Part shown: positions 13,953 to 40,296 of the stretch, piece by piece | Numbering within the stretch: the first letter of the stretch is position 1 | Layout: each line of letters opens with the position of its first letter | Made by a program: the position numbers and the translations under genes | The notes under the pieces: generated by a model | Databases searched by the model: none | Told to the model about the DNA's origin: nothing | Seen by the model: the letters and a program-made list of their open reading frames with translations, nothing else | Assembly (NCBI GenBank): GCA_021432655.1 | Contig: MU271546.1 | Span: 1-46,518 of the forward strand | DNA from: Atractiella rhizophila | Taxonomy: Eukaryota | DNA length: 46,518 bases | Direction of reading: 5' to 3'

Positions 13953-14307
13953 NNNNNNNNNNNNNNNNNNNNNNNNNNNNNNNNNNNNNNNNNNNNNNNN
14001 NNNNNNNNNNNNNNNNNNNNNNNNNNNNNNNNNNNNNNNNNNNNNNNNNNNNNNNNNNNNNNNNNNNNNNNNNNNNNNNNNNNNNNNNNNNNNNNNNNNN
14101 NNNNNNNNNNNNNNNNNNNNNNNNNNNNNNNNNNNNNNNNNNNNNNNNNNNNNNNNNNNNNNNNNNNNNNNNNNNNNNNNNNNNNNNNNNNNNNNNNNNN
14201 NNNNNNNNNNNNNNNNNNNNNNNNNNNNNNNNNNNNNNNNNNNNNNNNNNNNNNNNNNNNNNNNNNNNNNNNNNNNNNNNNNNNNNNNNNNNNNNNNNNN
14301 NNNNNNN
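13953..14307. other. Assembly gap (N run)
   Basis: Run of N bases. Confidence 0.99.
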
Positions 14308-17245: not shown

Positions 17246-18062
17246 NNNNNNNNNNNNNNNNNNNNNNNNNNNNNNNNNNNNNNNNNNNNNNNNNNNNNNN
17301 NNNNNNNNNNNNNNNNNNNNNNNNNNNNNNNNNNNNNNNNNNNNNNNNNNNNNNNNNNNNNNNNNNNNNNNNNNNNNNNNNNNNNNNNNNNNNNNNNNNN
17401 NNNNNNNNNNNNNNNNNNNNNNNNNNNNNNNNNNNNNNNNNNNNNNNNNNNNNNNNNNNNNNNNNNNNNNNNNNNNNNNNNNNNNNNNNNNNNNNNNNNN
17501 NNNNNNNNNNNNNNNNNNNNNNNNNNNNNNNNNNNNNNNNNNNNNNNNNNNNNNNNNNNNNNNNNNNNNNNNNNNNNNNNNNNNNNNNNNNNNNNNNNNN
17601 NNNNNNNNNNNNNNNNNNNNNNNNNNNNNNNNNNNNNNNNNNNNNNNNNNNNNNNNNNNNNNNNNNNNNNNNNNNNNNNNNNNNNNNNNNNNNNNNNNNN
17701 NNNNNNNNNNNNNNNNNNNNNNNNNNNNNNNNNNNNNNNNNNNNNNNNNNNNNNNNNNNNNNNNNNNNNNNNNNNNNNNNNNNNNNNNNNNNNNNNNNNN
17801 NNNNNNNNNNNNNNNNNNNNNNNNNNNNNNNNNNNNNNNNNNNNNNNNNNNNNNNNNNNNNNNNNNNNNNNNNNNNNNNNNNNNNNNNNNNNNNNNNNNN
17901 NNNNNNNNNNNNNNNNNNNNNNNNNNNNNNNNNNNNNNNNNNNNNNNNNNNNNNNNNNNNNNNNNNNNNNNNNNNNNNNNNNNNNNNNNNNNNNNNNNNN
18001 NNNNNNNNNNNNNNNNNNNNNNNNNNNNNNNNNNNNNNNNNNNNNNNNNNNNNNNNNNNNNN
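17246..18062. other. Assembly gap (N run)
   Basis: Run of N bases. Confidence 0.99.
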
Positions 18063-19164: not shown

Positions 19165-21982
19165 CTAATTTATAAAGACTTTATACCGACTCCCAGCGTG
19201 GGACACCTTCGACTGGTAACGGTTGGAGGTAACAACGAAGATGGCGTCGAAGGAGTTGAGGGCTGGGCGATTCTGCTTGGACTGAGGTGGGGCCTGCGGC
19301 GCCAATGAGCTCGAGCCTTGCTTTTCTGCCAGATACTGAGCGAGGGATGGACCAAATGACAGGACGTCATTTCCATTTCCAACCTCTGAAGTAGGTGCTG
19401 TATCGCCCGTCGAACTTGAAGTCTGGAATCCGTTGCTCGTCTTCCGCCTCTTGGAGTTGGGAGGAGACGACGCAGTACCGGATGGCAGGGTATGTTTGGT
19501 GGCAGCAGACGAAGGAGACAGTTGAGACGGTGCGCTTCGTTTCTCATGAACAGCAACTCTTGAAGGGCCACTCTCACTCGATAGACTTGGGGCAAGAAAA
19601 GAGGGTCGAGATGACGAAGGCGGAGGGGCATTTGCTAACTTCTTGTTGAGAACCATTGCAGCTTGCCTCATCGGGGATGTCTTGGGCATTGGTCCAACTC
19701 TTCTCAGGGGACTTTTGAATCTCTTTGGACTGGAAAGGGGCCGCTTTGGGCTTCCTGGAGGTCGCAATGTTGTGCCAGTCTGAGGCACTCGACGAACAGA
19801 ATGACTTCCGCCTTGCAGCATTTCGCCCACCTTCCTTTTGGTAGCTCGAGGATTCTGTCGACAACGAAGGAAGGTAATACAAGCTGTAGTTTGGATAAGA
19901 TATGGGTTCATGTATACTGGCCAGAGAAGGGACAAACCTTGGCAAAGACACTCGTTCCTTTGTGCATGATAAAACCACTTGCTCGTCCTCCTCGTCCCAC
20001 ACTGTCTACACTTCGCATAATCCAGCACGTTCGTCCCATTCAAATCGAAAGTCGGCTCTCTCAGATGAACCCACTTCGTGCTCATGTCCGTGGTCCCTCC
20101 AGGAGTTGGCACATCCGAAAAGACCGAGGCAGGGGTCGGCGCGTCCCATGGTACCGGGGTGCTCTCGCACGGCAACGGACGAAGAGCGGAAGTGGAGGGG
20201 AGCGGAGTGGGAGCGTTCCTCTTTGGCGCATACAGGGCGAGGCCAGCACTTGAACTCCTCGTGGCTCGAGCATCATCCACTACTTCAATAATCTCCATCC
20301 TCTTCACATTACTGCTCTCTTTTGGAGCTGGAGGGGGCGGTGGTGGGTTGGGTTGGGAAAGAGGGAGAAGGGTGGGAAGACCTTTGCTCCGAGCGTGTGG
20401 TGGTAGAGGTCCTGTAAGCTTGGGAGGCGGCAGCACTGGAGGGGTTGACGAATAGTCGGCGGACGCATTGGGGCCTGACCGTCTCCTTCCTGTTTTGCTC
20501 AGAGACGGGCCTGCCTTTGCATTGGCGTTGCGGCTAGAGGACAGATATGTCTGAGAAGAAGCCTTCGGTGGCTCTAGCTTTACGGGAGTGTACATAGAAG
20601 GGTTAGAGTGGACCGGAGTTTGAGAGTTGTTGCTACTATCCCGCTGACCGAGGTTAGATGCTGACGTCGTGCTCGTCGTCGTCAAGGGAAGATGCTCCGC
20701 AGAAAAGCTGAGGAAGTGAGAGGGGTCGGAGAAAGAGGAATGATGATTCCTCAAGAACTTCTCCGGCGCCACAATCGAACCACTGCCCAATTCCTGATTA
20801 GTCTGACGAGTCGAGACCGTTACCGTGTCGCTCGACTGAGACATCTTCTTCACCGGGTCTCCCGACCGCACACGCTCCCTCGGCAGGGATCCGCTGCTCG
20901 CCTTTCGCTCCAGCGACTGAGCCACAGCCGCTGGGATGCTATCCACCCGCTTTCCGCTTTCAGGCGCATCGTTCCCAGACCCCGCGGCTCGAAAGAACTC
21001 TTCCCAACTCATGCCTTCCATCGAGCCGACAACGTCTTGCGCCGGCGGTTGTAGGCTGGCATCGATCGCGCTGCCTCCACCGAAGATGCCGCTGAGGTCG
21101 AGGTGGGCTGATGAGTTGTCGATGCCGTCGAAGAGGGCAGTGTTCGAAAAGTCGAAATGGGGGAAGAGGTCTGAAGAAGAGTCGCCGGAGAGGAAGTTTG
21201 GGAGGTCGGGCATGGACATGGAACACGGGTGCGAAGCCGCGGAGGCTGGAATTGGAAGTTGAGAGGAAGAGGAAATGCCGGTTATGTAGGATGCCATGGT
21301 ATTGACGAACTGCTCTTGTGTGACCGTTTGAGTCTACGATGCGAACAAACTGTTATAGAGCAGGGATGGGATAACTTGAAGGGAATTGACGTACCTCTAC
21401 CAGCAGCAACGAGACCTCGAGCAAGTTTCCCTCGTCTTCCGCTTCATCGTCCTCCGAATCTTCAGACTCGCCATACTCGTTGACGATGCGTCCTATGACC
21501 GTCGTATCGCCCTCATCATTTTCGGCTACGATCCAGCTCAAGAGGCCCTTGCTTTCGAGGACAGACGTGTCCCTTGGATCCTTGTAATACAGCATAAAGT
21601 CTCTATTCTCGGAACCAAGCTCCGGCGCAGAAAGCAGGTCCGGTCTTCACTTCCCATTACCCCTGCCTTGACATAAGTAGGAACAAAGGATGCTCACCTG
21701 GACGAGAAAAGACTAATGACGCAGTTCTTCAGCTTCGTCTTTCCGAACCTCTCCCTTCCCCTCTCCCTCCCGCCTCCATTCTCCTTCTCCCTCCGCGGCT
21801 TCCTCCTCTTGATAACGTCAACCTTCAGCGTCCCTTCCGGTCTGCAACACAGATTGAAGCTCGGGGTATATTCAGGTCCAGGGGCCGTTTTGGAGCTCGA
21901 ATAAAACAGTTTGACTGTACATCCTCAACTCAAAATACAACGATTGAAAGCAGAAAGCACCCACCACCCATGAGTCTGACAT
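19165..21982 (-). CDS. Ams2/Spt21-like transcription factor with a GATA-type zinc finger
   Basis: Spliced N-terminal domain VKLFYS...LCCRP...FGKTKLKNCVISLFSS|RPDL...DFMLYYKD...SKGLLSWIV...VIGRI...LEVSLLLVE|TQTVTQEQFVNTM resembles the Ams2/Spt21 N-terminus. After removing intron 19884-19937 the finger reads CRQC-x18-CQAC. The exact 3' end is uncertain because a further exon toward ~18980 is possible. Confidence 0.72.
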
Positions 21983-28409: not shown

Positions 28410-28660
28410 AATTCGCTTTAGCAGACTTCACTGTTGAAGTATTTACAAAACAACTCGTTATCATTGTCATACACCCTTGATCTCAAAATATAACGCGATT
28501 CGACGCGGCAACATCATGTGATCTACGCAAAACCTGAGTTCGGGACAGATTCAGGTGGGTTGCGTTCCTGGCTGCCACGACGCTAGAACGCGTCAAAAAC
28601 GACGAGATTAGCCTCATCCTGCTCTATTTTAATGTTCTTTAGATAGTCTGTAAGGAGAAG

Positions 28661-31600
28661 ATGGACCCCAACGATCTATCACAGGTTCTACCAAGTTCCC
28701 CTTTGAAGAAAGCTCGGCTCGCCATTGATGGAACAGCGACCTGCCAACAAACATTTGAGGACCCGATAACCACAATCGAAGAGCAGAATGACGAAAGTAC
28801 TGTGGAATTTGCAACTGATTTGACGGAGGAGGAAGTGAGAAAGTCAAGGAAGTATCAAGATGAAGCACTTGTTGCTGCAAAGGCTGGGAACGTTATTGTC
28901 AGGATGCCTACGGTGCGTGTCACGATCAGTTCGCAACTTGTGTCAAGAAGCCTTTTTCATTCTGCCATATAGGCATGAAAGCCTGCTCATTCAGCTTGTA
29001 GGAAGTCGTCTTCTTGAAGCCGTCACACTTTTAGCCTTTTGAAAGCCACAGAGCAGGATCAGCTCACTGATTCATTTAGGGATCTGGAAAGACAATGGTG
29101 GCAACTATGCTGATAAAAGACATGTTGTCCTCACCCCTGAGCCAAGGTGATACCACACCCAAGGTCCGCCTCTTCACCTCCACTTAAATTGTGTTTCCAA
29201 ATCCCGCTTGACAGAAAATCATCTTCCTTGTTCATACAACGCTCCTTGTGCACCAGCACCACGCCACACTCTCCGCCTCACTCCCATCCCTCCATTCCTC
29301 CTCATCTCTCAAATCCTACTATGGCATGGGGTACGACGACTGGTCATCCTCAAAATGGGAAGCCGAGTTCGAAGAGCTCGCTGTGGCGATCATGACGGCC
29401 CAAATCTTTCTGAACCAGCTCCGAGCTGGGACGTGGAAAATGAACCGGTGCCAGCTCATTGTCTTTGATGAGTGCCATAATGCCACGAGAAATCATCCCT
29501 ACGTTGCGATCATGAAGGAAGTTTATCATCAGATGCCTGCAGAGGAGAGACCAAAGATTTTAGGCCTCACTGCAAGCCCGATTCAGGATCCACAGGCTGA
29601 TAAGGCGAAGAAATTCATCTGTGGAAGGAAGGTGGAGGTCGCCGAATTTGGATGGGAGGATGTCGACTATGGGAACGAGAAAATCACGTTCAAGGTTAGC
29701 GATGAGAAGCTTCTGGAATGGGCAGATGACGGGATAAAGAAGAGCCATCTTCTTCGACTGGACGAATGGAATCGAAAGTGCTACATGGTGTCCCTTAATC
29801 GTCGCTTTTCGAGGGAAGATTTGGCGTATGAAAGAGAGTCGAATAGTCGAGTGGAACCCCAAAAGTCGCAACATCGACTGTTATGGCTTCTCGCACCACT
29901 TTCTAGTGATGGTCACATCGACTGGTCATTGGTGGATGAGCCCTGGTCTCCACTTCCCAGATTTATTGAACACCTGAACCTACATGAGCTGCATAGCTCA
30001 GTGATACTTGTTCCTCATCGGCCTCTCACCACCCGACTCTTCAACTTTGTTTCCCCTCGTCACGACGTCTCCACTTCCTCATCGGTCCATTTACCTCTTG
30101 CAAAACGCATCGAATGGATAGATTATGAACATTGGTTCACCAAGATGAGGAGACACCATGCATCGGTCCGAGCTCTCCCAGAAGTTACCTACTTCTTAGA
30201 ACTTCAAAGTCATCCGAAGCCCAGGAACTTCCTTGCGCCATCGACCAAGGATTCTTACGAAGATCGTCGTACCTTTCTCGTTCCCAACAATCTTTGTGCA
30301 ATCGATCTTTTAGGGGTTGGTGTATGGAAGACTTTTCGACATGTCCCTAGCTTTACCAGGAGGATTCACGACATGCTACTCGCTGACATGGTTGCGAAGG
30401 AATTGACGTTGGATTTCATTCCGTCTGAGTTGATGTGCCATGCCATAACTTTGCCAGTTTGCGGAGTCGGATATAACTATGAGTGGGTGCTTCGCACATA
30501 ACCTCCCAATTCCTCATTGATACGACATAGGCGGCTTGAATACTTGGGCGATTCTTTCGCAAAGTTGGTATGTTGCCCGCCAGGCATAACAGATCGTTGA
30601 ATGGGTTTGAAGGCATCGAGTATCCACTTGTATTTGCTCAAGGACAAAAACCAAGACCTACTGGACGAAGGACTTCTCAGCGCTCGAAGGCAGGCTTGTA
30701 TCAGTAATTTCACCTTCCGGAAACGAGCGATCGAATCCGAGCTGCATAACTGCTTCTCTACTTTCATTTGTCGTATCAATGCCTGGCGGCCTCCAACTTT
30801 CGAAGTTGACAACGACCTTTCTGCCGATGGCTTGACAGTTGTCCGCACAGTGGCTCGTCGTACCCTCTCTGACGTGACTGAAGCGGTCATGGGTGCTGCC
30901 TATTTGTCTGGAGGGATACCAGGAGCTTTACATGCTTCACAACAACTTGGCCTCTCGTTTGGGAAGGCTAAGGACGGCGATTGGGAGAAACGGTGGCATG
31001 AATTAGGGAATGAAGGCGATATCTATCCCGCGGGGCCCATTTTGCGAGAGTTGGAAGAAACACTTGGATGGATATTTCGCGATTCGAGATTCCTAATGAG
31101 CTCTCTGACACACAATTCATATACTGCCGCCGACGCATGTTATCAACGTGAAGAGGTCTGTCCTCTGTCCTTCTACCTACATCGTTGATTGACATCTGTC
31201 CAGTTTTTGGGTGATGGTAAACTGTCCATTCATCCGCAGATCAGAACTAATTGATCCCATCAGCCGTGATTGATTTCTTTGTCGCCTCTAAACTCTTTTC
31301 CCTCTTCCCTCTTGCTCCACCTTCCCGCCTTTCAGTTCTCCGCTCTATGTTAGTTTGCAATTCGACCCTGTCATACCTCTCCCTCTCGTTATCCCTCGAC
31401 AGTCACATCCGGCTCTCCGCAGCATCCTCCGCCATCGACGCCATTGCTGCTGCCCGCAAGGAATATTCTACCTTTGGACCTCTGGATAAGGATTGGCTCT
31501 CCAGAAAGCCCTGGACTTGGGATCCTCCAAAAGTTCTGAGTGATGTCTTTGAAGCGGTTATCGGCGCAGTGTTTTGGGACTCCAAATTTAACGTTCAGAA

Positions 31601-32250
31601 AGTCTGGGTGATCCTAGAGAGATGTTTTGCTAATCTCTTGAGGGTTATTCAGGACTGTGGAGATGTGGTAGCAGATCCGTGGTCGGTTATGGAAAAGAGG
31701 ATCAGGCAAGAGGCTCGTTGTCATGAATGGAGGGTCGAGCATAGGTCTGTGTTTATTCTGAATTCTGAAAATTTGAAGAGTGAGGCTCGCCTTTAGTCAA
31801 CTAGAACCAGGCGTTCGACTCGCACAGGTCATATTCCATGATGTCGAGATAGGATCCGGGACGGGCAAGACGCGAGCAATGGCAAAGATGGCAGCAGCGG
31901 ATGCAGCCAATGCATGGTGGCTGCTCCATCGACAAGACGTGCGAAAGGAGAGCGCAGAGGATGATCAAGAAAAAATCTGCGATTGTCATTTCATGAGGGA
32001 GCAGAAGAAAAAGGAGAAAAAGGAGGCGAAACTTAGGGAGAAGCTAGCTGCTAGAGATGTGACAAACAAGGCAGGGAAAACTACTGGAGAGGTCGATGTG
32101 GAGCTCTTTAGAGAAAAGGAGGTCCCAAACTCTATAATCGAAGTTGAGAAGGAAACTGGACAGCGAATTGAACCTGGACAGCTTGACGAACTGGTCGAAG
32201 AAGTCGATGTGGATGATGTTGATTCTGAAGGCACAGACGAGGAGATGTGA
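28661..32250 (+). CDS. Dicer-like protein A, internally deleted (HEL1 - platform - RNase IIIa - RNase IIIb - dsRBD), about 1040 aa
   Basis: Exons 28661-28912, 29080-29163, 29215-30482, 30531-30567, 30612-31155, 31204-31216, 31264-31744, 31797-32250. Motifs: RKYQ, MPT|GSGKT, VFDECHNA, GLTASP, YE|RLEYLGDS, LSDVTEA, REE|FLGD|A, LSDVFEA, dsRBD with CDC. No helicase-C domain or DUF283. Confidence 0.9.
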
Positions 32251-32606
32251 TGCTTTGTGGACATTTGGATCGGCCAATGGATGTACGATAGACTTCTTGG
32301 GCATGTTGGAGTGTTAAGACATTAGATTCATGTACTCTATCATCAGGCCTATCTCCCAGCGTCATGTAAGGATGATGTTCAACTCATGCGCAAGCGGACG
32401 CGTGCCCCCCTGTTTTGGAGCGGGGGCTAATGAATTGAGCAAAACCCTGTGATCAACTGTGATGGCCTCCCGGGGTCGTAACAGGACAACAGGACAAGTG
32501 GACAAGTGTTTTCGTCGTTTGCGATGATTGCGTCTCTCCTCCCCATCATTAATAAGCGGGTCTCCAGCATGAGGACAAACCCGCAAGCACCTCGCCACCT
32601 TTCATT

Positions 32607-35600
32607 ATGCAGGAATCATCCAGCGAGCGAGCAATGATGGGGATTGAGATGTTAACGTCCAGAAAGTATCAGGAGGAGGCGCTGATCGCTGCAAAGAGGG
32701 AGAATGTGATTATTAGAATGCCAACGTGGGTCTCCTCTTTACCAAATATTTAATTTCAGCTCCGCGGTGAGGCTCCTCGCTCCTGTGGTTGTGACTGCAA
32801 TAAAAGATGTGGAATTTCTAAAGCTCTGAAGCATGAAAGCTTCCACGGTCACTTCACTTGATCTCTTCATCTGTGCTGGTAGACTAGACAGGGACATCGT
32901 AGACATTTCTCACCTCGCGAGGGTACAGTACTCCCACTCCCTGTATCCTAGTAAATATCCAGATACAATATTTTACATTTTTCTCCCGGAAAAGATATCT
33001 GTTTGAGTTGTGAGATTACGGGTGGATATTCCAAGGAGATTTGTGAGCGAGTCGGGGTGATATCGACATCCAACAAAAGGAGAATGAAGTTGTCTAGAAT
33101 TGCTCAAAATCCCAACATGGCACAGTATCTGGGGATGTTTGATTTATTCAAAGCAAATTTGAGATTCTCACGCCTTTTTGATGTATTTTTCTTTTCAGTT
33201 CTTTGATGACAGTATGTTAGCCTGACTGACTTAAAATCACGCTGTTGTATAGAGGCTCTGGAAAGACTCATGTGGCCGCTCTTCTGATCAAAGAGATGTT
33301 GTCCATGCCTCTGGAACCAGGTCAAACAGAGGCTAAGGTATGTATGCCTTGACTTCATCGCACTGGGCTGATGGAAAGAATAGAAAATCATCTTCCTCGT
33401 GGACAAAACGCTGCTAGTGCATCAACACATTGGTACACTGACGCGGTACATGCCTTCACTAGCGTCCCGCCTCAAACATTATTTTGGAATGAGCTGCGAT
33501 AGCTGGCCAGTGTCTCAATGGCTCGAAGAATTTGCTTCTCTCGATGTTGCCGTCATGACAGCACAAATCTTCTTGAACCAATTACGTGCCGGGACTTGGC
33601 TGTTAGACAAATGCCAGCTGGTCGTCTTCGATGAGTGCCACCATGCAACCAAGAGCCACCCATATGTTACGATCCAAGAGGAAGTGTACATGAAGATGGA
33701 GGGTGAGAGACCGAAGATTCTGGGCCTCACTGCGAGTCCGATATACAATAGTGAGTCGGAGAAGGCGAAGAGAGACTTAGCGTATGTCTTACTACTTGAC
33801 TTCAAGCAAATGAGTCGTCGAGTAGTGACATTTGGTCTGGTGTAGCAAACTCGAACGTATCCTCGATTGTCGCATTCACGAAACTAAGCTTCACGTTGAG
33901 GAGTTGAAGCTGTTCTCACCCACTCCCGTTGAATCGATATATGGCTATCCAAGATCTGAACTAGGAGAACCTCGCCCCGTTTCTCACATCGAAAACTTAT
34001 TCAAATCTTGTATCTGGAGCTGGAAGAAGTTTACAGAAGGGCCGGGGAAGATGTACAAGGCATTTTTAGATGCAAACCAAGTTAAACGTTCCCAGTACCT
34101 TGATAACGTTGAGGCTGATTATGTTTTACAGCACCTTGGAACTGTAGGAGGAGACATATATCTGTACCTTTGGCTGGGCGAATTCAAGAACCATGTCGAT
34201 AACCACCCCGCATTCCACTCGATTAAGCAGGACACACGTCGTTATTCGCAGCTTCAGCGGTTATATTCTCTAATGAAGACAGCTGTTGAAGCTCTTCCAA
34301 CTTTCGTTCCATACAGTTCCTTCACCAGCGAACAGTTTCGGCACGACGACCTGGACCGGATGCAATACGATCCCTTCCCTTCTGAACTCCTAGTCGGCAA
34401 TGACGGCTTCTCGCACAGACTTCGGCTGTTCCTATCCCTTCTTCCCATCTACCGAGACGTTGCATCTGATAAATTTCAATGTCTCGTCCTCTGCCAGACT
34501 AGGTTGCAATGCGAGGTATTGTGCGAAATTGTGAATCGCTTTTCCGGCTACCCGTGGATTAAGGCGGGCTGGCTGGTTGGTCATGGGGATAGCAAGGACG
34601 GAGTGAAAAGGGATATGCAAACAGAAGTCGAGGCCAACATGAAAGTGGAGGAACAACTCAACATGATGAATGGTTTCAAAAGAGGAGATATTAATCTGCT
34701 CGTCGCCACCAACATTGCGGAAGAGGGGATTGTATGTTTGACACTGCTCCCTTCTTCCACATCAAATTGAGATTGCCATGCAACAGGATGTCCCTGCTTG
34801 TAATCTGGTTGTGCGCTTCGATCCACCGCAGACCTTGGTAGTTGTTTTCTCTTTTTGTGTGTGGTCAGTGATGACATATCATGGCACTGTGGCAGGTCTC
34901 CTACGTGCAATCTCGCGGACGTGCCAGGCGTCACAATTCATATTACGTCCTGCTGGCTTCCAACGAGGACGAACGGCAGAAGTATGTGAAATGGAAGGAA
35001 CAAGAGCTGACTCTCCTGGCGCAATATCGAAATAGGGAGGACATGGAGAACCTGCAAGCACAATCGGAACCGGACCACTTTTTCTTCCAACATCGCGGAG
35101 AGAAAGCGTACCTGACTGGCCATTCTGCGGTTATGCTCATTGCTGCCCTCTGCAATATTTATCGAGTAAGTAGTGCTTTCCTGTCACCACCTTGAAAAGA
35201 GAGTGAACAAGGGAGAAACAGGACGAGTACACTCCAGATACTAAGCCAATTTACGAAGAGTACGAGCATGCCGACACCTACTGTCGTTTCCAATATCGCC
35301 TCCAGCTACCCATGATCACTCCACTCACACAAAAGGAGAGAAATATACTGTCCGACCGCTGGCCCACCAAGAAGAAAGCAAAACATCATGCTGCCTTTTT
35401 GGCGTGTCTTTTTCTGCGGGACAAGGGGAAGATCGACAAAAACTGGCAACCCATCAAGAAGCCGAAGAAAACAGGTAACCAAATGGAGTATTGGTTCGAT
35501 GGAAATGGGGAAAAGGTGGTTGTCACGAAACTACCTGCTGCTATCGAAGGAAATATGCCCAATGTCTGGGGAGATTTGTGGAGGCCCGAAGGGGAGTGCT

Positions 35601-38132
35601 GGATGCATATTCTGCTGCTGACAACTGGAACCTTGGAGACAAAAATGGCTTTCATTTGCGGGAAGCGCATCAGCTTCGAAACGTTTGGCTGGAACGATGT
35701 CGATTTTTCCAATGAAGCTGTTTCTTTCTCCCTTGTCGGCACTCAGCTTATGACGTGGCAAGATCAAGAAGCAAAACGAAATGAGTTGCTACGACTGGAC
35801 AAATGGAATCGCAAGTGCTTTATGGTCTCATTGAACCGACGGTTTGTGAGGGAAGACATTTCTCATCATCAGGAATCCCTCAATGGAACTGCACCGGAGA
35901 AGTCGCATTTTCGATTACTCTGGCTTCTCGCCCCCCTTGACTCTGAAAATGCCGTCAATTGGACGCTAGTCGACGAACCTTGGATCCCCATTCGCAATCA
36001 GTGTGACTTGCAGGATCTGGAACAGTCGATTATTGTTTCGCCATATCGGCCACTCACCTGCCGGCTCTTCAAATTCATCACTCACCGTCCAGACATATCG
36101 CCTTCGTCTGAAATTCAACTCCCACTTCTAGGCAGAATTAAATGGGCGAATTATAGCGAATGGTTCTCATACTCGAGAAAGTATTATCCTTGTGTTCGGG
36201 CAACACCAGAGACTAACTTCTTCCTGGAACTCGAGAGCCGTCCCAAATCTCGAAATTTTCTTGATGGGACGTCTCAATCGAAGCAGCTCAACCAGGGACC
36301 GCACCAATTGATCCTGCCCGACAACTTGTGCGCGATTGACCGCCTGGGAGAAGGCATGTGGAAGGCATTCAGGCATGCTCCCAGCTTCAGCCGGAAAATT
36401 CACGATGGGTTGCTGGTTCGGCTGGCAGCTCAGAAATGGAAGATGCAATCGGTACCCAGCTCCCTCCTTACCGAGGCCCTTACTTTGCCTGTTTGCGGTG
36501 TTGGGTTCGACTACGAGTGAGTTGCCCCATACCATGCTGCAAAATACTAACAAGTCCGCAGACGCCTCGAATATCTAGGAGACTCGTTCGCAAAATTGGT
36601 TTGTTGTTTAATACTTTTTCAGCAAGTTGTTTACGAGAATACAGGCTTCTAGCGTGCACCTTTTCTTGCTCGAGGATTCCACAGGAAGATTGCTAGATGA
36701 GGGTAGCCTGAGCTGTCGCCGTCAAGCCTCAATTAGCAACTTCACCTTCAGAAAGCGAGCATTGGAAACTGGAATACATAGCTATTTCTCCACGCTTCCT
36801 ATACGACCCTATGCCTGGAAACCCCCTTCCACCGATTTGCACAAGCTGTCACTGGACGGCCAACACCTGGTTCGGAATGTTACACGTCGTAGTCTGTCAG
36901 ACGTCACCGAGGCGTTGATGGCGGCGGCGTACCTCACTGGAGGGATTGAAGGAGCCTTGGATACCTCTAGGGAGCTCCAGTTGTCGTTCGGAAAGCGTGA
37001 GGATGGAAGTTGGCAGGAACGATGGGAAGCTAAAATGCGAAATGAACAAGAGTATCCGGCTGGACCTGTATTACGAGACCTAGAAACGACTCTCAATTAT
37101 CGCTTTCGAGATTCCCGCTCCCTGTTGCGCGCATGTTGCCATAGGAGCTTCTTGGCCGCAGATGCCTGTTACGAAAGGGAGGAATTCTTAGGGGATGCTG
37201 TTATCGATTTTTTCGTTGCGAACAAGCTCTACCATCTATTCCCCAATGCGCCCCCCTCTCGATTAACAGTCCTTCGCTCCATGCTCGTCTGCAATCCTAC
37301 TTTGTCTTACTTAAGCTTCAAGCTCCGCCTTCACAACTATATTCGAATGTCTCCAGCGTCATCCGCCCACGCAGCCATCCATGCAGCACATGGGGAATTC
37401 AAAGAATTTTCTCCACCCGACTCTACCTGGCTTTCAAGTATCCCTTGGACCTGGGACCCGCCTAAAATCCTAAGCGATGTTTTCGAGTCGGTCATAGGTG
37501 CCATTTTCTGGGACTCAAAATTTGATCTCGATTTGACGTGGAAGATTTTGGACGATATTTTCGGAGAGCTGCTTCTCGTCATCCAACAATGTGGTGATTT
37601 TGTGAGGGACCCGTGGTCTTTGATGCAACTGCGAATGGTCAAGGACACTCGCTGTCGCAAATGGAAAGTGGTTCACAGGTACGTTATTCAATGTCTATTA
37701 AGATAGCTTTGTTCATGCCCTTATAGTCAAGGGGAACCTGGCCTGAGGCTCGCCCAGATTACGTGTCACGACCAGGAGATTGGTTCAGGAACGGGGAAGA
37801 CACGAGCTTTGGCGAAACAACAAGCCGCTGGCCGTGCAAATGCTTGGTGGCTACTCAATCGTCAGAACCTTCGAAAAGAGAAAGCGGACGATGACGAGGA
37901 CAAGATCTGCGACTGCTATTTCTTGTGGGAGCAAGAGAAGAAAGGGAGGAAGGAGCAGAAGCGACTAGAAAAGCAAGCAGCTAAAGACGCAGCCGCGGCC
38001 GCTTCTGATCTCAACACGGGCAAAGTGACGGAGATTGAGAAGGAGACAGGAAAGTTGGTGGAGGGAAATGAACCTCTAGACGGCGCTGAAGCTGAGGAAT
38101 ATACATCTGAAGATGAGCATGAAGATATATAA
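32607..38132 (+). CDS. Dicer-like protein B, full length (DExD/H helicase - DUF283 - platform - two RNase III - dsRBD)
   Basis: RKYQ, MPT|GSGKT, VFDECHHA, GLTASP, LLVATNIAEEGI|DVPACNLVVRFD, SYVQSRGRAR, DUF283 (AVMLIAALC...KKKAKHHAAFLAC), ERLEYLGDS, LSDVTEA, EREEFLGDA, LSDVFES, dsRBD with CDC. The start codon is tentative. Confidence 0.94.
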
Positions 38133-38299
38133 AACAAGGAATCCACAACTACTTTGCTAGATTTACGATTCTCAATACTCCTTGACTAGTGACTTACTCT
38201 GCAAGCTCTAAGATGGAGATATTGTGAGCACCCAATATGAGTTAGCTAGGGAATTATCATCTGCAACACAGTCTATCGTTATAGATTTACTTTTACAGC

Positions 38300-40296
<1,997 letters not shown>

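Follow-up and report, generated by a model that had tools for sequence, protein, structure and literature searches.

A tandem Dicer-like gene of Atractiella rhizophila lacking its central helicase region: an isolated deletion allele or a misassembly rather than a novel type of Dicer

The stretch of DNA analysed here (the window; 46,518 nucleotides of contig MU271546.1 in assembly GCA_021432655.1, Atractiella rhizophila) carries two Dicer-like genes, A and B, which lie head to tail on the + strand. In gene A the reading frame passes from the first helicase lobe (HEL1) directly into the platform-PAZ region, with the join at 29613/29614, and the initial annotation had proposed that the gene encodes a natural, helicase-truncated Dicer. 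The exon models of both genes are our own and were built from open frames and splice signals, and a Pfam scan was performed on 11 exon translations from genes A and B. The features of the locus are listed below (nt, nucleotides; aa, amino acids; E, expectation value); P0204 is a protein of the annotated A. rhizophila proteome, and X1 and X3 are public sequencing runs.

28661-32250, + strand: Dicer-like gene A, putative deletion allele; 8 exons, 1043 aa, open frame with GT..AG introns.
28661-28912, 29080-29163, 29215-30482, 30531-30567, 30613-31155, 31204-31216, 31264-31744 and 31797-32250, + strand: exons of gene A.
29215-29613, + strand: retained part of HEL1, from strand KIIFLV via DECH and TAS to ...ADKAKK (Pfam DEAD and AlphaFold2 (AF2) model).
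29613-29614, + strand: candidate deletion junction, at which residues 246-789 of P0204 (544 aa) are absent (alignment and loose ends of X1 and X3 contigs).
29614-30482, + strand: remainder of the platform, PAZ-like and connector region without its first beta-hairpin (from the model of the gene B counterpart).
30531-31155, + strand: RNase IIIa, a 37-nt exon coding (E)RLEYLGDSFAKL and then exon 30613-31155 (Ribonuclease_3, E 2.7e-06).
31204-31216, + strand: micro-exon of 13 nt coding FLGD(A), the RNase IIIb catalytic signature (spliced X3 contig).
31264-31744, + strand: main exon of RNase IIIb (Pfam Ribonuclease_3, E 4.8e-13, from 31266-31742 translated).
32607-38132, + strand: Dicer-like gene B, full length; 10 exons, 1526 aa, 9 GT..AG introns.
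32607-32725, 33253-33337, 33384-33781, 33846-34731, 34787-34837, 34896-35165, 35222-36516, 36562-36598, 36645-37678 and 37727-38132, + strand: exons of gene B.
33774-35650, + strand: segment of gene B that matches the part lost from gene A (HEL2i, HEL2, Dicer_dimer and the start of the platform); 548 codons, 4 introns.

All seven introns of gene A are GT..AG and 45-167 nt long, and the frame of the exon model contains no stop. As had been described in the initial annotation, the translation keeps the Walker A motif GSGKT, DECH and the E/D...D/E residues of both RNase III domains, and the junction is continuous and in frame: exon 29215-30482 is a single open exon that reads ...GLTASPIQDPQADKAKK up to the join and FICGRKVEVAEFGWEDVD... 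after it, the residues directly to the right being FICGRKVEV... In nucleotides, ...GCGAAGAAA abuts TTCATCTGT... Pfam matched DEAD/ResIII and two copies of Ribonuclease_3 in gene A, with the DEAD match covering residues 2-126 of the translated exon 29215-30482 (E 1.8e-08). No match to Helicase_C was obtained in the gene A exon translations, where the helicase consists of DEAD/ResIII (HEL1) only, and none of the gene A exons matched Dicer_dimer/DUF283 (PF03368). The translation contains both ERLEYLGDS/SDVTEAVMGA and REEFLGDA/SDVFEAVIGA, which we take to be the RNase III catalytic motifs. Of the features by which a Dicer is recognised, gene A possesses a tandem pair of RNase III domains carrying the catalytic E, D ... 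D, E residues and lacks the complete helicase (HEL1, HEL2i and HEL2 with motifs IV-VI). The last exon of either gene gave no Pfam match to a double-stranded RNA-binding domain; in P0204, DSRM_2 at 1415-1474 scored 20.3 bits against a cut-off of 27.

The annotated A. rhizophila proteome contains the same gene in complete form. P0204 (KAH8930434.1) is 1587 aa long and equals gene A of the window with residues 246-789 inserted exactly at the join. In the alignment, 239/245 residues (97.6%) are identical to the left of the join and 783/798 (98.1%) to the right, and homology between gene A and P0204 resumes across it without any base lost or gained. Helicase_C (498-557) and Dicer_dimer (627-726) were both placed by Pfam within the residues that gene A lacks. 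P0204 shares its C-terminal tail with gene A and, on a single 292-kb contig, has the same tandem neighbour; it differs from the window copy in keeping Helicase_C, Dicer_dimer and the platform start (residues 246-789). The P0204 model itself is without about 5 residues at the helicase motif EEGIDVP. Judged by sequence, gene A of the window is a deletion form, and the annotated reference, from the same species or a very close relative, holds the gene intact. The specialised, ATP-independent class of Dicer that had been proposed is therefore unsupported, as the same gene, with flanks 98% identical, encodes 1587 aa in this proteome.

Gene B is the full-length neighbour that had been described, with Pfam matches to DEAD/ResIII, Helicase_C, Dicer_dimer (E 3.9e-12) and two Ribonuclease_3 stretches. 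The gene B segments that match the two flanks of the gene A join end at 33773 and start at 35651, and the 1877 nt between them hold the 548 codons for which gene A has no counterpart. As a tandem paralog it shares intron positions with gene A, including those of the 37-nt RLEYLGDSFAKL exon, but it differs in the presence of HEL2i, HEL2 and Dicer_dimer, in the absence of the introns at FLGD and in a first intron of 527 nt. Identity between the two proteins is 58% (569/975 aligned residues), from which it follows that the duplication is old and that synonymous sites between A and B are saturated.

Eight public runs contain part of the window, and contigs of X1 (DNA), X3, X4 and X8 were aligned to 28500-38300. 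X1 contains 0.80 of the sampled window words, which is the highest value among the runs, and the only X1 contig covering 28702-28864 carries 7 listed differences from the window; X1 and X3 may not be from the window's strain. No X1 or X3 contig placed at 29613/29614 spans the junction, and it is not among the listed joints either. Two X1 contigs match up to 29612/29613 and continue with 85-86 letters of other sequence, and one further X1 contig (1274 nt, 6 mismatches/1160) matches from 29614 onwards and is preceded by 114 other letters. The loose ends of X3 at the join translate to DLRALMSVLN and KAGKAVTKIG, which correspond to P0204 residues 246-255 and 780-789. The right-hand loose end of X1 codes for a slightly different version from that of X3, and there are therefore at least two full-length alleles. 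Relative to the conspecific full-length allele the window thus carries a deletion with exact borders that is absent from two other data sets. The initial annotation had itself named extra sequence at the junction, or a private deletion, as findings that would speak against its proposal, and the X1 and X3 contigs come close to providing them, although they may represent another strain.

X3 is evidently RNA, as its contigs splice out 9/9 gene B introns at GT..AG. In gene A, X3 skips introns 30483-30530, 30568-30612 and 31745-31796 singly at GT..AG, so that both introns flanking the RNase IIIa exon 30531-30567 are spliced, and it skips 31156-31203 and 31217-31263 as one joint, hence all five introns downstream of the join. 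The micro-exon 31204-31216 sits between these last two introns (48 nt and 47 nt), neither of which is found in gene B; the X3 contig connects 31155 to 31263 with the micro-exon letters in between, and in an X4 contig the same letters form a loose end at 31263. Splicing at the predicted borders shows that genes A and B are transcribed and spliced as modelled, and splicing at every listed intron shows that the full-length form of gene A is transcribed. RNA spanning the junction, which had been suggested as a check, was not seen: X3 provides the only RNA contigs at the junction, and these continue into the missing part at both borders, as in the full-length form. X4 (30780-30930 and 31263-31400) and X8 (29853-30003 and 30023-30173) have two RNA contigs each within gene A, given as 151 nt, which stop short of the junction and are uninformative on the deleted form.

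The effect of the join on the protein was considered by structure prediction. Gene B exon region 35222-36514 was folded with a 48-sequence alignment (mean predicted local distance difference test score (pLDDT) 84.7), and the model matches Dicer chains (best E 4e-14) as well as the human platform-PAZ-connector cassette 4ngb (template-modelling score on target 0.51); the Giardia Dicer, PDB 2ffl, is at rank 41 among these fold matches. Strands 127-135 and 138-146 of the gene B model form a hairpin with pLDDT 95-98, and the residue equivalent to the first one after the gene A join is F144, inside strand 138-146. As the breakpoint cuts this platform hairpin, the loss exceeds HEL2i, HEL2 and DUF283 and is not a clean domain excision. 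The initial annotation was correct that these three parts are gone, but about 60 residues that follow DUF283, including the first platform beta-hairpin, are missing as well. In the AF2 model of the gene A junction exon (mean pLDDT 79.1), all 10-residue blocks of residues 1-120 lie at pLDDT 78-96, while the blocks covering 121-160, around the join, fall to 43, 66, 57 and 59, against 98, 82, 81 and 97 for gene B blocks 141-180. The gene A model retains most of the secondary structure, without the first platform hairpin; the fold search was performed on the gene B model only. A lone RecA1 lobe cannot form an ATPase site, as motifs IV-VI of HEL2 are required in SF2 helicases. From the models, the gene A product would be that of a null or weakened allele.

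It is against this background that a selected, functional HEL1-only Dicer has to be judged, which would dice without ATP, prefer other substrates or modulate gene B. The open frame, the 7/7 canonical introns and the retention of Walker A, DECH and all RNase III catalytic residues are in its favour, and the full-length paralog next door could take the canonical role. Many fungal Dicers are without detectable helicase subdomains according to PMC12663654, and truncated mammalian Dicer isoforms are reported to alter activity (PMC11239679 and PMC9645528). The arrangement is however not conserved within the species-level cluster, where the gene is complete in the reference protein and in two run data sets; its breakpoint wrecks the platform hairpin rather than tracking domain borders; and no transcript of the deleted form is seen in X3. 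Nor does anything point to selection once the deletion had arisen. Of the 17 nt differences from the X3 allele to the left of the join, no more than 2 alter the protein (H139Q, A168T), which indicates that gene A as such has evolved under purifying selection, but this is uninformative on the period following the deletion. When the 21 residues at which the window and P0204 differ were polarised by gene B, 9 were informative: the window has the derived state at 6 of them and P0204 at 3. If the deletion is recent, the intact frame is no evidence of selection, as it would be seen in any case.

Protein collections were searched for the junction. No bridging protein was found among 55 matches of longer proteins, in the near-length search (1 match, P0056, which does not bridge) or among shorter proteins over region 95-175 (0 matches), in collections which are also without the open reading frames (ORFs) known from X1 and X3 contigs, so that these negatives are weak. 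The best 150 of 1773 matches in the representative library likewise include no bridging protein, the close ones being only P0001 and P0056, and this negative too is weak. Scanning of a metagenome collection for the 24-nt junction gave 0 matches, as did a degenerate left-flank pattern that would also catch full-length alleles; the collection is without the gene altogether, and the 0 junction matches are therefore uninformative. The same fusion, for which a search of related genomes had been suggested, was not found: the reference protein is full length, and at both borders the contigs of X1 and X3 have the full-length form. As recurrence fails even within the species-level cluster, the HEL1-only form is no lineage feature. 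A functional HEL1-only Dicer maintained by selection is thus very improbable, and we would give as little credence to a segregating HEL1-only allele that is transcribed, stable, and dices without ATP or titrates partners of the full-length neighbour.

The junction itself was examined for its possible origins. A splicing origin was ruled out, as the missing piece begins GATCTG and finishes TTGGT or TCGGT in the contig loose ends, not GT..AG. A microhomology-mediated deletion was also ruled out, as the nearest word common to both ends, AAAGAT, does not line up with the breakpoints and would yield another join. There are no Ns at the join, and the assembly marks two gaps elsewhere by N runs, 13953-14307 (355 nt) and 17246-18062 (817 nt), both distant from genes A and B. 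The two ends of the join share neither a repeat nor an overlap on which an assembler could have collapsed the region.

One further protein bears on the join. P0056 is a partial protein of 244 aa, identical to gene A at 243/244 residues and 100% identical over query 1-132 of the junction exon, whose cluster has P0204 as its one further member. It is encoded on a separate NCBI contig of 8220 bp and ends ...ADKAK, one codon to the left of the join. A haplotig would end exactly at the join if the deletion were heterozygous, because the sequence downstream of it is nearly identical to that of the other haplotype. From the sequence, the ending of P0056 would fit either a real heterozygous deletion or a join made at a contig end. 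The far end of the 8220-bp contig, at about 21.39 kb in the window, is intergenic with nothing notable.

Gene A could alternatively be full length on both haplotypes, with the end of a diverged haplotig abutted during assembly to a contig starting about 1.85 kb further on. Such an artefact is a serious alternative, although the less probable one. It would account for the absence of any X1 or X3 contig that crosses the junction and for contigs of both sides that enter the middle part, and a join of this kind would be in frame by chance in 1 of 3 cases. On the other hand, contig joins without overlap normally receive Ns, as the two N runs show that this assembly does, and the two ends have no repeat in common. 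The borders also coincide exactly with the stop and resumption of homology to P0204, with no base lost or added, and the runs that lack the junction may not be from the window's strain, as is indicated by the 0.80 of words in X1 and its 7 differing sites. A real deletion is favoured because the join has no N and no collapsible repeat or overlap, and because the P0056 haplotig ends one codon short of it; the low divergence from the X3 allele right of the join, compared with that on the left, agrees with such a collapse of the downstream sequence onto the other haplotype.

We therefore consider, with a probability of roughly 0.55, that gene A in the window carries a recent deletion restricted to its strain or haplotype and is probably a null or weakened allele; that a private deletion is real, taken by itself, is at least as probable and perhaps slightly more so. 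On this reading, gene A would be the window copy of an ordinary, expressed, full-length Dicer-like gene, part of an old tandem pair in an Atractiella rhizophila-like basidiomycete. A genomic deletion of about 1.6-1.9 kb, codon-exact and without useful microhomology, would have taken out residues 246-789 and with them HEL2i, HEL2, DUF283/Dicer_dimer and the first platform beta-hairpin. The deletion would be private to the haplotype or strain and is probably recent, and the frame and catalytic residues would be intact for want of decay time, not through selection. The product, if made, would consist of a lone RecA1 lobe incapable of ATP hydrolysis, a damaged platform-PAZ and two intact RNase III domains, and a null or weakened gene A may be covered by the full-length allele and/or gene B. 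That the window shows a true deletion and not a misassembly is what we infer, as are its recent date and its effect on function.

Several observations weigh against this reading. The junction is present in no independent data set, and its reality rests on one assembly. That a window-like NCBI contig, the one carrying P0056, stops within one codon of the same base could equally mean that two contig ends were joined. Mismatches between the window and the X3 allele leap at the join, from 17/401 nt on the left (29213-29613) to 5/869 nt on the right (29614-30482), and a shift in divergence (4% vs 0.6%) at exactly this position is likewise compatible with a chimeric join. Contigs of X1 and X3 entering 29614 from the middle part are unbroken there; with a de Bruijn assembler, this speaks against the presence of the deleted form in these samples. 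With regard to the supposed consequence for the protein, AF2 confidence is no measure of stability, and laboratory-made helicase-deleted Dicers are reportedly active, so a null or weakened allele stays an interpretation. The 6 and 3 derived sites show no significant asymmetry (binomial p about 0.5, calculated by hand).

Some observations were made on gene B and on the remainder of the window. P0001 (A. rhizophila, 1222 aa) is a mis-modelled gene B, located on the same 292-kb contig as P0204, with 1154/1205 aligned residues identical; its model reads through an intron and omits Dicer_dimer, and the length backed by spliced RNA contigs is 1526 aa. The first intron of gene B (32726-33252, 527 nt) is about 10x as long as its other introns and is spliced in X3. 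An X1 contig has 135 other letters in place of 32983-33156 (172 nt) within it, so this intron is polymorphic. In exon 4 of gene B, an X3 (RNA) contig omits 51 nt (34077-34129, 17 codons) with the non-canonical ends CA..TA, which could reflect either an in-frame indel between alleles or an artefact of the contig. On the minus strand, 19165-21333 is a serine/proline-rich ORF of 722 aa from stop to stop, with a CxxC...CxC stretch that is seemingly interrupted by an intron and that is presumably GATA-type zinc-finger-like. The G+C content is 0.28-0.30 at 16-19 kb, compared with about 0.49 elsewhere, partly since Ns count as non-GC.

Gene A of the window is either an isolated deletion allele or a misassembly and no novel type of Dicer, and because the normal copy of the species is complete it reveals nothing new on Dicer evolution. 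If the deletion is real, it provides a natural allele with which to probe the roles of HEL2i, HEL2 and DUF283 in a root-endophytic basidiomycete with two Dicers, and if the HEL1-only allele is active, a natural experiment on the function of the helicase and DUF283 in a fungal Dicer. If it is an artefact, it serves as a warning: in-frame 'domain losses' observed in a single heterozygous fungal assembly should be backed by reads before surveys of non-canonical Dicers include them.

Known Dicers with reduced helicases offer a comparison. In the mouse oocyte isoform HEL1 is reportedly lost via an alternative promoter, while HEL2i, HEL2 and DUF283 are kept, and the isoform is said to be expressed and fixed in its lineage. 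Gene A, unlike this isoform, keeps HEL1 and has lost the rest by an apparent genomic deletion, and its product is predicted only; an expressed truncated transcript, as in the mouse oocyte, was not found, the junction RNA in X3 being full-length. The mouse oocyte isoform and the delta-HEL1 form have an incomplete helicase in common with gene A, but the changed activity is that of the mouse form, and truncated mouse Dicer without HEL1 supports RNA interference, as reported in PMC11239679 and PMC9645528. Giardia Dicer (PDB 2ffl), a minimal Dicer built of platform-PAZ-connector and two RNase III domains, resembles gene A in the latter and is active as a helicase-free enzyme; it has a complete platform, whereas gene A has a stray HEL1 lobe and has lost the first platform hairpin. 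Among 1592 fungal proteomes, PMC12663654 describes 273 'non-canonical C' and 342 'non-canonical E' Dicers lacking helicase subdomains, for which its authors deem true truncation possible; 'Atractiell' has 0 occurrences in the main text. As in gene A, one or more helicase subdomains are absent from these class C and E proteins, but they are described there as shortened N-terminally along phylogenetic clades, whereas gene A has an internal deletion in one assembly and a complete reference. The HEL1-only arrangement of gene A therefore differs from the fungal C and E, the mouse and the Giardia forms, each of which resembles it in part, and it is no feature of a lineage.

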